Origin: Escherichia coli
GTDB lineage: Bacteria; Pseudomonadota; Gammaproteobacteria; Enterobacterales; Enterobacteriaceae
Strand: one strand, 5' to 3'
Assembly: GCF_003019035.1 (NCBI RefSeq)
Contig: NZ_CP027447.1
Length of the DNA stretch: 64,000 nucleotides
The notes below the pieces were generated by a model. That model had not been told where the DNA came from. It made no database searches and worked only from the letters and a program-made list of their open reading frames with translations. The position numbers and the translations under genes are program-made. Below, one piece after another: positions 56,656 through 64,000 of this stretch; the stretch's first letter is position 1; every line of letters begins with the position of its first letter.

Positions 56656-56848
56656 TATTTTCCCTTTTCTGTTAATTATTGAGAATAATTATTACTTCAC
56701 TTAATAAGCTGCGGATATAACATTCTGAACCGCAGCTATTTGTGAATCCTTTCACAGTTTAAATTTCCCCACGCGCATAGCCTTAATATCAGCACGCAAT
56801 ATTTATTTAGCGTTCGCCTTAATTACTCATAGCATTAAGGAAGATCAC

Positions 56849-61993: not shown

Positions 61994-62992
61994 TTATTTC
62001 TTGCTGAATTCAGCCAGGTTGTCTTTATCTACGCCAACATAAGGTACGCGGACCACTTTGTTGTCGATTTTCCAGTTGGTGCCATCAGCCGCACCTTTGC
62101 CATCGGCCAGGTTTTTCGCCAAATCAAAGGTCGCTTTCGCCTGGTTGTTAGCATCGTTCAGTACGGTGCCCGCCAGTGCACCGGATTTCACCAGCGCCAG
62201 CGCTTCTGGCAGCGCATCGACGCCAAACACCGGAATGCTGGACTTGTTGTGTGCTTTCAGTGCTTCTACCGCGCCCATTGCCATCGCATCGTTGTTGGCG
62301 ATAACCACTTCGATTTTGTTGGCGTTCGGGCCAGACAGCCAGGCGTCCATCTTATCTTTCGCCTGAGCGGTGTCCCACATAGCGGTATCTAACTGTAACT
62401 GTTCAGTTTTGATGCCTTTGTCGTTCAATTCTTTAATCACGTAAGTGGTACGTGCTTCTGCATCCGGATGGCCCGGCTCACCTTTCAGCAGTACGAACTG
62501 AATCTGACCGTCTTTGTTCAGATCCCAACCCTGATTCGCCGCCCAGTGTTTAGCAATCAAATCGCCCTGAATAATGCCGGACTCTTTGGAGTCAGTGCCA
62601 ACGTAGTAGGCTTTGTCGTAGCTATCCAGCGCCTTACGAGACGGTTCTTTGTTGAAGAAAACCACCGGCACGTTTTGCCCACGCGCTTTCTCAATCACCG
62701 TACCCGCAGCTGCCGGGTCAACCAGGTTGATTGCCAGTGCCTTCACCCCTTTCGCCAGCAATACGTCGATCTGATCGTTCTGCTTGGACTGGTCATTCTG
62801 AGAATCATTCATCAGCAGCTGAACATCTGGCGCGGCTTTCGCATCTTGCTCAATAGCCTTGCGCACCACAGACATAAAGTTATCGTCGTACTTGTAGATT
62901 GTTACACCAATGCGAGTATCAGCAGCGTGTGCAGCGGCACCGAATAACATGCTGGCCATCACAGCAGACAGGGTTAACACCTTCTTATTCAT
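61994..62992 (-). CDS. mglB: Periplasmic D-galactose/D-glucose-binding protein, 332 aa
   Basis: Signal peptide [23 protein letters not shown]; recalled as MglB. Confidence 0.96.
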
Positions 62993-63240
62993 GGTATCTC
63001 CGGTTTTTCTTATGCAGGGTAGTGCTTGAGATAAATGCTCGGCGGGGCAGTAGAGTTAATGAAGTGTTACTGAACGCCGAAGCTCACTTTTTAAAATTCG
63101 TTCTTCCATGCCCGGTAACGCTCCAGAAAACGGCTTTAATTGTTGTTATGACGCTATTACCTCGGTGAAAGTGATTATTCACTGTTACATACGGGTTACA
63201 ACGTTAAAACGGTGCAATCATAGCTATCACATTGTTAAGA

Positions 63241-63262
63241 TACTGTGAAATCACTCACAGAT
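63241..63262. promoter_or_regulatory. Near-perfect CRP-binding site between galS 3' end and mglB
   Basis: TGTGA-aatcac-TCACA (63244-63259), a perfect match to both CRP half-sites; mglBAC is known to be cAMP-CRP dependent. Confidence 0.7.
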
Positions 63263-63271
63263 TGAAAGCGG

Positions 63272-64000
63272 TTACATCGCCTGATTTGTTGAGTTAGTGA
63301 TCGCCGCCGCATTCTGGCGTGTTGCGACAGAATGGCGACGCACTAACGTCGGCATAAAACAGTGGCTGGCACGAGGATCAATATTGCCTGCTGCCCCCAG
63401 CAAGGCCAGTTCGGTGGCTAATTTCGCCATTGAAGCAATGGGATAACGCACGGTCGTTAATTGCGGGTCGGTGTAACGGGCGATGGGAATATCATCGAAA
63501 CCGATGATGGAGAGATGTAACGGAATCGCAATGCCATTATCTTTTAATGCTGTCAGTGCGCCAGCGGCCATATTGTCGTTATAAGCAAATACAGCGGTAA
63601 GTTGTAGATTGCGCCCCAGCAGTTCAACCATCGCCGCCTCACCGCCCGGCATGTCAGGCGTGCCAGTGCCAATCCAACTTTCCGGCGGAATAATATCCTG
63701 CTCTTTCAACGCACTCATCCAGCCTGCTTTACGCATGGCGTCATCTTCAATGCCGTGGCTGGAAGAAAGATAACCAATACGTTGATGGCCGTTATTCAGC
63801 AACATGCGCGTCGCCATTCGGGCACCACTGAGATTATCCAGGCAAACGCAACGATGGGCGTACCCCGGCACAACGCGGTTGATTAACACCATACCGGGAA
63901 TGTTATCCATAAATTGTGCCAGTTCATCATCACTCAATGCTTTTGAGTGAACAATCAACGCATTACAACGCTGGCGAATTAACACCTCAATGGCATGACG
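63272..64000 (-). CDS. galS: LacI/GalR-family galactose isorepressor, C-terminal part (5' end beyond window)
   Basis: ORF 63272..63985(-) continues past the window edge; periplasmic-binding-protein-like effector domain of the GalR/GalS type. Confidence 0.85.

Follow-up and report, generated by a model that had tools for sequence, protein, structure and literature searches.

Organization of the galS-mglB locus

The window, that is, the whole stretch of 64,000 nucleotides analysed here, is E. coli chromosome: of 5426 complete E. coli genomes, 5425 carry positions 62900-63400 at 95% identity or more, with the flanks annotated galS and mglB in every one of these matches. The K-12 order is mglA-mglB-galS with one strand throughout, which corresponds to the minus strand of the window; features below lie on this strand unless stated otherwise. 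From the open reading frames and the annotation, mglB, the first gene of the operon, encoding the periplasmic galactose/glucose-binding protein, occupies 61994-62992, and the upstream galS gene ends with a TAA stop codon at 63272-63274, within an operator for the galactose repressors. For comparison we used 80 mglB loci, drawn from about 25 genera of enterobacteria, whose MglB proteins were 92-100% identical; galS was the upstream neighbour of mglB in all 80. No hairpin resembling an intrinsic terminator was found on the minus strand of the galS-mglB spacer (62993-63271), and galS transcripts may therefore enter the mgl leader.

A perfect CRP core between galS and mglB

The starting point was a prediction made from the letters of the sequence, which placed a perfect TGTGA-N6-TCACA motif at 63241-63262, about 250 bp from the mglB start and abutting the galS stop. 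The motif was confirmed: its core, TGTGAAATCACTCACA on the plus strand (TGTGAGTGATTTCACA in the mglB-sense reading), lies at 63244-63259 and both pentamers are perfect. The window holds two such perfect cores for 0.08 expected, and none of 100 dinucleotide shuffles reached two, which places the motif above chance. Outside the pentamers, the 22-mer fits the CRP consensus poorly, with matches at 3 of the 12 non-core positions. The site is centred at 63251.5, and the A of the mglB ATG is located 259.5 nt downstream, close to the distance first proposed. The position relative to galS held roughly, the edge of the 22-mer being separated from the stop codon by 9 nt; the stop is overlapped by the GalR/GalS operator at 63262-63277 and not by the CRP site.

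The sole other perfect TGTGA-N6-TCACA core of the window, TGTGAATCCTTTCACA, is found at 56741-56756 in the yeiS-preT spacer, centred some 100 nt before the start codon of preT (dihydropyrimidine dehydrogenase). From its motif and position, it may be a candidate CRP site for preTA.

Promoter geometry and transcription start site

The layout of a class II promoter could be predicted from sequence alone, with the hexamer TATGAT (63222-63217) as -10, transcription beginning near G63210 and CRP centred on -41.5. We then compared this layout with the transcription start site (TSS) map of Kim et al. 2012, obtained in MG1655 by terminator-exonuclease (TEX)-enriched 5'RACE-seq (PMC3415461). Table S1 of this work gives the mglB TSS as 2238588 (U00096.2, minus strand), with a 5' UTR of 218 nt supported by 6 reads in one dataset. 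The 51-mer ending at this TSS, CTGTGAGTGATTTCACAGTATCTTAACAATGTGATAGCTATGATTGCACCG, is identical to window 63260-63210. Because of this exact match, the TSS falls on G63210 and the CRP centre on -41.5. The -10 hexamer TATGAT thus extends from -12 to -7 (63217-63222). The hexamer at the -35 position is CAGTAT, and a generic -35/-10 scan did not call mglBp. The promoter in its mglB-sense reading is gcgATGTAACCGCTTTCAAtcTGTGAgtgattTCACAgtatcttaacaatgtgatagcTATGATtgcaccG. It combines sequence features by which class II promoters are recognized: a CRP consensus core, a centre 41.5 bp upstream of the mapped TSS and a correctly spaced -10 element, with a weak or absent -35 that the CRP site overlaps.

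These positions agree with other data. The RegulonDB values for mglBp, as quoted in the supplement of a 2026 reporter-assay preprint, are -41.5 for CRP and -59.5 for GalR/GalS. CRP was recovered as an activator footprint at mglBp in the 2026 MPRA preprint, and mglBp bears CRP and RNAP footprints in a companion MPRA preprint; CRP was not captured by mass spectrometry with an mglBp bait in an MPRA study. In cyaA- cells mglB induction requires cAMP (PMC1635313), and promoters of the gal regulon, galR and galE excepted, are silent in vitro without regulators (PMC4073488).

A point of terminology concerns the name given to this position. In the usual Busby-Ebright nomenclature -41.5 is class II, a standard from which the class-I label of the 2026 MPRA supplement departs; there, -41.5 (mglBp) and -40.5 (mhpRp1) are both called 'canonical class-I'.

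The distance between the site and the gene had suggested a long 5' leader for mglBAC, and the published TSS bears this out with its 218-nt 5' UTR (62993-63210). This untranslated leader, which intervenes between promoter and gene, is the sole reason why the CRP site stands some 260 bp from the ATG. Similarly, a 5' UTR of about 250 bp has been given for mglBAC in E. coli and Yersinia pestis alike (PMC3119520). In comparison with the K-12 mglBp entry of RegulonDB/EcoCyc, the locus is the same, the 51-mer upstream of the TSS is identical and our derived positions equal the annotated ones. The promoter is unchanged and the leader carries a few substitutions (window CACTTTCACCGAGGTAATAGCG versus K-12 CACTTTTGCCGAGGTAACAGCG).

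Hence, sequence, chance test, conservation and RegulonDB converge on the same element: 63241-63262 is the annotated cAMP-CRP activator site of mglBp. It is real but ordinary and already known, since it is a textbook site annotated in databases.

The GalR/GalS operator mglO

The original prediction had proposed a search of the spacer for GalS/GalR operators, and this search returned the known mglO beside the CRP site. The operator occupies 63262-63277 (sense strand ATGTAACCGCTTTCAA) and includes the galS stop codon; its centre, 63269.5, corresponds to -59.5 and precedes that of the CRP site by 18 bp. Its assignment comes from the literature and from conservation. Among GalR operators, PMC5110547 includes the sequence TTGAAAGCGGTTACAT at MG1655 2240618-2240633 (equivalent to window 63262-63277), and a GalR ChIP-chip peak lies over it at 2240625. 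A G to T change in mglO, 3 bp from the galS end, arose repeatedly under selection in glucose-limited chemostats and relieves repression of mglBAC (PMC2763269); mutational hot spots comprise galS itself and the 280-bp upstream region (PMC12366229). The GalR/GalS footprint at mglBp was not recovered by the 2026 MPRA study.

Against the published consensus GTGNAANC.GNTTNCAC, mglO shows two mismatches, at the outermost positions 1 and 16, while the critical positions of this 16-bp hyphenated dyad (G3, A5, G9 and A15) are kept. Both the dyad with its critical positions intact and a fixed position relative to the promoter are therefore found. The motif by itself is not above chance, with 2 two-mismatch matches in the window for 2.9 expected; the reality of mglO consequently rests on experiments and conservation.

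Overlap of galS with the operator is confined to Escherichia. In other genera galS stops at ...ITN*, 9-12 nt short of the operator. When loci L002-L081 were compared, the Escherichia genes had a C-terminal extension of 6 codons (...ITNSTNQAM*, region 63272-63292), explained by loss of the ancestral stop (...ITN*), and as a result the operator overlaps coding sequence in Escherichia only.

Two other operator-like 16-mers were noted. One, GTGCACCGGATTTCAC at 62176-62191, lies inside the mglB coding region; its match quality is at chance level in the window and it is listed as 'O (mglB)', from 3C experiments, in PMC5110547. The other, GAATAATCACTTTCAC at about +38, lacks critical positions 3 and 9 and was rejected as a GalR site.

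Conservation of the promoter across enterobacteria

The perfect CRP core was present in all 80 loci, in each of them with the operator centre exactly 18 bp upstream. In 79 of the 80 loci, the core was located 229.5-260.5 nt upstream of the ATG and leader length ranged from 188 to 218 nt. When the window was added to the 80 loci, TATGAT was found at -12 to -7 in 76 of 81 sequences and G at +1 in 78 of 81, and the median leader length was 216 nt. Per-position conservation was about 100% in the operator, both CRP pentamers, the -10 element, the +1 position and the heptamer TTAACAA at -27 to -21. This last block (63231-63237, minus strand), situated in the interval between the CRP site and the -10, fits no standard promoter element.

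The eightieth locus, that of Citrobacter amalonaticus S646 (L024:1040-1500), has its CRP core and operator 461 nt upstream of the ATG, since its leader carries a repeat-like insertion of about 200 nt and measures 412 nt instead of the usual ~216. The insertion ends with ...GGTGAGCGAGCGCAGTCAACGCACCTGTAAGTTGAAGTATGACGAG, an end which presumably resembles the ERIC/IRU intergenic repeat.

Conservation and structure of the mglB leader

The leader was compared over 32 genera, where its majority identity was 0.76 against 0.64 at 115 four-fold degenerate sites in a codon alignment of mglB from these genomes (P<1e-4). Segment +47 to +78 is a neutral-looking exception (0.60). The most conserved part is the final 43 nt (0.87), which holds CTACCCTGCA and the Shine-Dalgarno sequence GGAG of mglB (62998-63001), the latter invariant in the 32 genera.

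A regulatory RNA in the galS-mglB spacer, the remaining suggestion of the original prediction, found no support as a free-standing element: an Rfam search of 62800-63500 on both strands gave no match at E<=1. RNAalifold on the 32 leaders gave a consensus of -0.03 kcal/mol, i.e. no global fold. The leader thus does not belong to the described cis-regulatory RNAs, which are defined by an Rfam model or a conserved covarying structure. Per-sequence pair probabilities did reveal two recurrent local helices, 63183-63179/63174-63170 and 63080-63075/63044-63039, with 83% of cells paired, 15 compensatory, and modest covariation. The covariation score was 0.206 versus 0.165 for shuffles, of which 0 of 500 reached the observed value, and slid controls did not exceed 0.125; since the sequences scored had also served to define the helices, this covariation is suggestive only and we claim no structure.

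Several blocks of the leader attract attention by their sequence. The heptamer ATGTAAC at +21 to +27 (63184-63190, minus strand) is near-invariant in 32 genera and identical to the operator's left half, which lies 88 bp upstream; the right half beside the heptamer is a poor fit to the GalR consensus. The palindrome GTGAtTAATCAC follows at +29 to +40 (63171-63182, minus strand); this segment reads GTGAATAATCAC in the window, is the perfect palindrome GTGATTAATCAC in most genera and could form a small hairpin. It encloses a cryptic near-consensus -10 revealed by the promoter scan, AATAAT at 63174-63179, one substitution away from TATAAT. In MPRA studies, a mutation at about +30 creates a new TSS in the mglB leader, which is accounted for by this cryptic AATAAT (63179-63174). 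Further downstream are a conserved block at +79 to +121 and in the 3' third of the leader, a C-rich, G-poor stretch at +141 to +200 (21 C, 7 G), which resembles a Rho-loading site. mglBAC is placed among operons with Rho-dependent terminators in PMC12366229.

Two leader-peptide candidates were discarded. The ATG at 63109, which opens the only noteworthy ORF with an ATG start (17 codons), gives way to ACG or AAG in most genera, and the ATG-TAA at +21 is without a Shine-Dalgarno sequence.

A Spot 42 target site at the end of the leader

We examined pairing of the leader with the sRNA Spot 42. The seed of the K-12 sRNA (nt 1-25) was predicted to pair with 63041-63013, i.e. -49 to -21 from the ATG, at -24.8 kcal/mol, a value reached by 7 of 1000 shuffles. 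This predicted pairing site (63013-63041) includes CTACCCTGCA, near-invariant in 32 genera. Seed complementarity is thus both better than chance and conserved, as expected of a Spot 42 target, whereas the duplex of full-length Spot 42 with the leader was no better than shuffles.

Published data from two species bear on this site. In Salmonella, Holmqvist et al. 2016 found an Hfq CLIP peak in the mglB 5' UTR, together with repression of mglB by Spot 42 which was confirmed by compensatory mutations (PMC5207318). This mutational proof comes from Salmonella, and the evidence in E. coli is transcriptomic: spf overexpression lowered mglB 2.7-fold (PMC8534726).

As for other members of the Spot 42/CRP multi-output feed-forward loop (galK, srlA, fucI), mgl is activated by CRP and paired by an sRNA that CRP represses. 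Like other targets, it pairs with the 5' single-stranded region of the sRNA and Hfq is bound upstream (PMC5207318); unlike them, its pairing site, at -49 to -21, occupies the 3' end of a leader of unusual length.

Comparison with the gal operon promoter

The closest known arrangement is P1 of galETKM, for which positions were measured on the K-12 sequence. There, the TCACA half-site at -38 to -34 sets the CRP centre at -41.5, also class II, and O_E is centred at -60.5; mgl shares this layout, without a usable -35. In both promoters an operator of the gal family lies 1.5-2 turns upstream of the activator site (19 bp from CRP in gal, 18 bp in mgl), and the repressors and the inducer are common to both systems.

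The two promoters differ in other respects. The CRP site of gal has one good half-site whereas both are perfect in mgl. gal possesses a second operator, O_I, at +53.5 and is repressed by looping, while one operator is documented for mgl. gal also carries an overlapping, CRP-inhibited P2. Finally, the leader measures 26 nt in gal versus 218 nt in mgl, a difference of 192 nt.

A second 5' end and alternative roles for the CRP site

The same TSS map (Kim et al. 2012, PMC3415461) reports a second mglB 5' end at 2238510, with 9 reads; the -218 start has 6. It corresponds to C63132 and to a 5' UTR of 140 nt. An additional promoter in the spacer had been envisaged from the outset, and this end lends it weak support: it could be either a weak strain-specific promoter or a product of processing. 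One may then ask whether the CRP site acts at a distance, in class I or III fashion, on such a nearer promoter, so that the leader would be short or of medium length with a start such as C63132. We consider this very unlikely. The higher read count of the -140 end and a weak AACAAT -10-like hexamer at 63144-63139 speak in its favour, but with this start the CRP site would be centred at -119.5, away from the canonical class I positions of CRP (-61.5, -72.5, -82.5 and -92.5). In addition, the 5' end is a C and the putative -35/-10 region (+47 to +78) coincides with the leader's only neutral-looking part, whereas the elements kept at class II spacing are TATGAT (76/81) and G+1 (78/81) of mglBp, which the RNAP and CRP footprints of the MPRA studies also fit.

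Given the symmetry of CRP sites, the palindrome might instead serve galS, either as a CRP roadblock or terminator or as the class II site of an antisense promoter on the plus strand. In favour of this, 12 nt separate the core from the end of galS, and the interval up to mglB is devoid of an intrinsic terminator. On the plus strand, however, the hexamer that a class II arrangement would use as -10 (CTGATT, 63281-63286) matches TATAAT at 2 of 6 positions, the promoter scan was empty and the conserved -10 and +1 stand on the mglB side. A roadblock at galS would moreover add to activation of mglB rather than replace it, and as a substitute for that activation this role appears more improbable still than the nearer promoter. 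As for a chance match without function, 16-mers with 10 specified bases do arise randomly in large genomes. This explanation is refuted by conservation, the core being perfect in 80 of 80 loci at fixed spacing from the operator and the -10; the 0.08 matches expected per window and the published functional data (cAMP dependence, PMC1635313; MPRA CRP footprint) point the same way.

We therefore retain, with near certainty, the reading in which the site is the cAMP-CRP class II activator site (-41.5) of mglBp, the sigma-70 promoter from which mglBAC, the operon of the galactose/glucose ABC transporter, is transcribed.

A model for mglBAC control and its implications

According to the class II reading, CRP bound at -41.5 overlaps the absent -35, recruits RNA polymerase and activates it directly, the TATGAT -10 being the only good core element of mglBp; the published cAMP dependence and in vitro transcription data support this step. 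When galactose is absent, the repressor at -59.5 would occupy the place of the RNA polymerase alpha-CTD and of the upstream CRP subunit, and activation would decrease. By analogy with gal P1, we infer that repression at mglBp is steric and operates through the alpha-CTD contact. Transcription then crosses the 218-nt untranslated leader before reaching mglB, and the 3' end of the leader would pair, with the help of Hfq, with the CRP-repressed Spot 42, so that CRP and Spot 42 form a feed-forward loop.

An undescribed cis-acting element, distinct from the Spot 42 site, may reside in the initial ~170 nt of the leader, a possibility that we put forward tentatively and regard as doubtful. Candidates for it are ATGTAAC at +21 to +27, GTGAtTAATCAC at +29 to +40, the +79 to +121 block and the C-rich +141 to +200 stretch. 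If such an element exists, it might provide a downstream contact for GalR/GalS, attenuate transcription through Rho and thereby also halt read-through from the terminator-less galS, or signal the processing that yields the -140 5' end.

A reader with access to the sequence only had thus correctly picked a genuine regulatory site and deduced an unusually long leader. The promoter that this site controls drives a high-affinity scavenging transporter for glucose and galactose, and galS and the mgl operator are among the commonest targets of adaptive mutations under glucose limitation (PMC12366229, PMC2763269).
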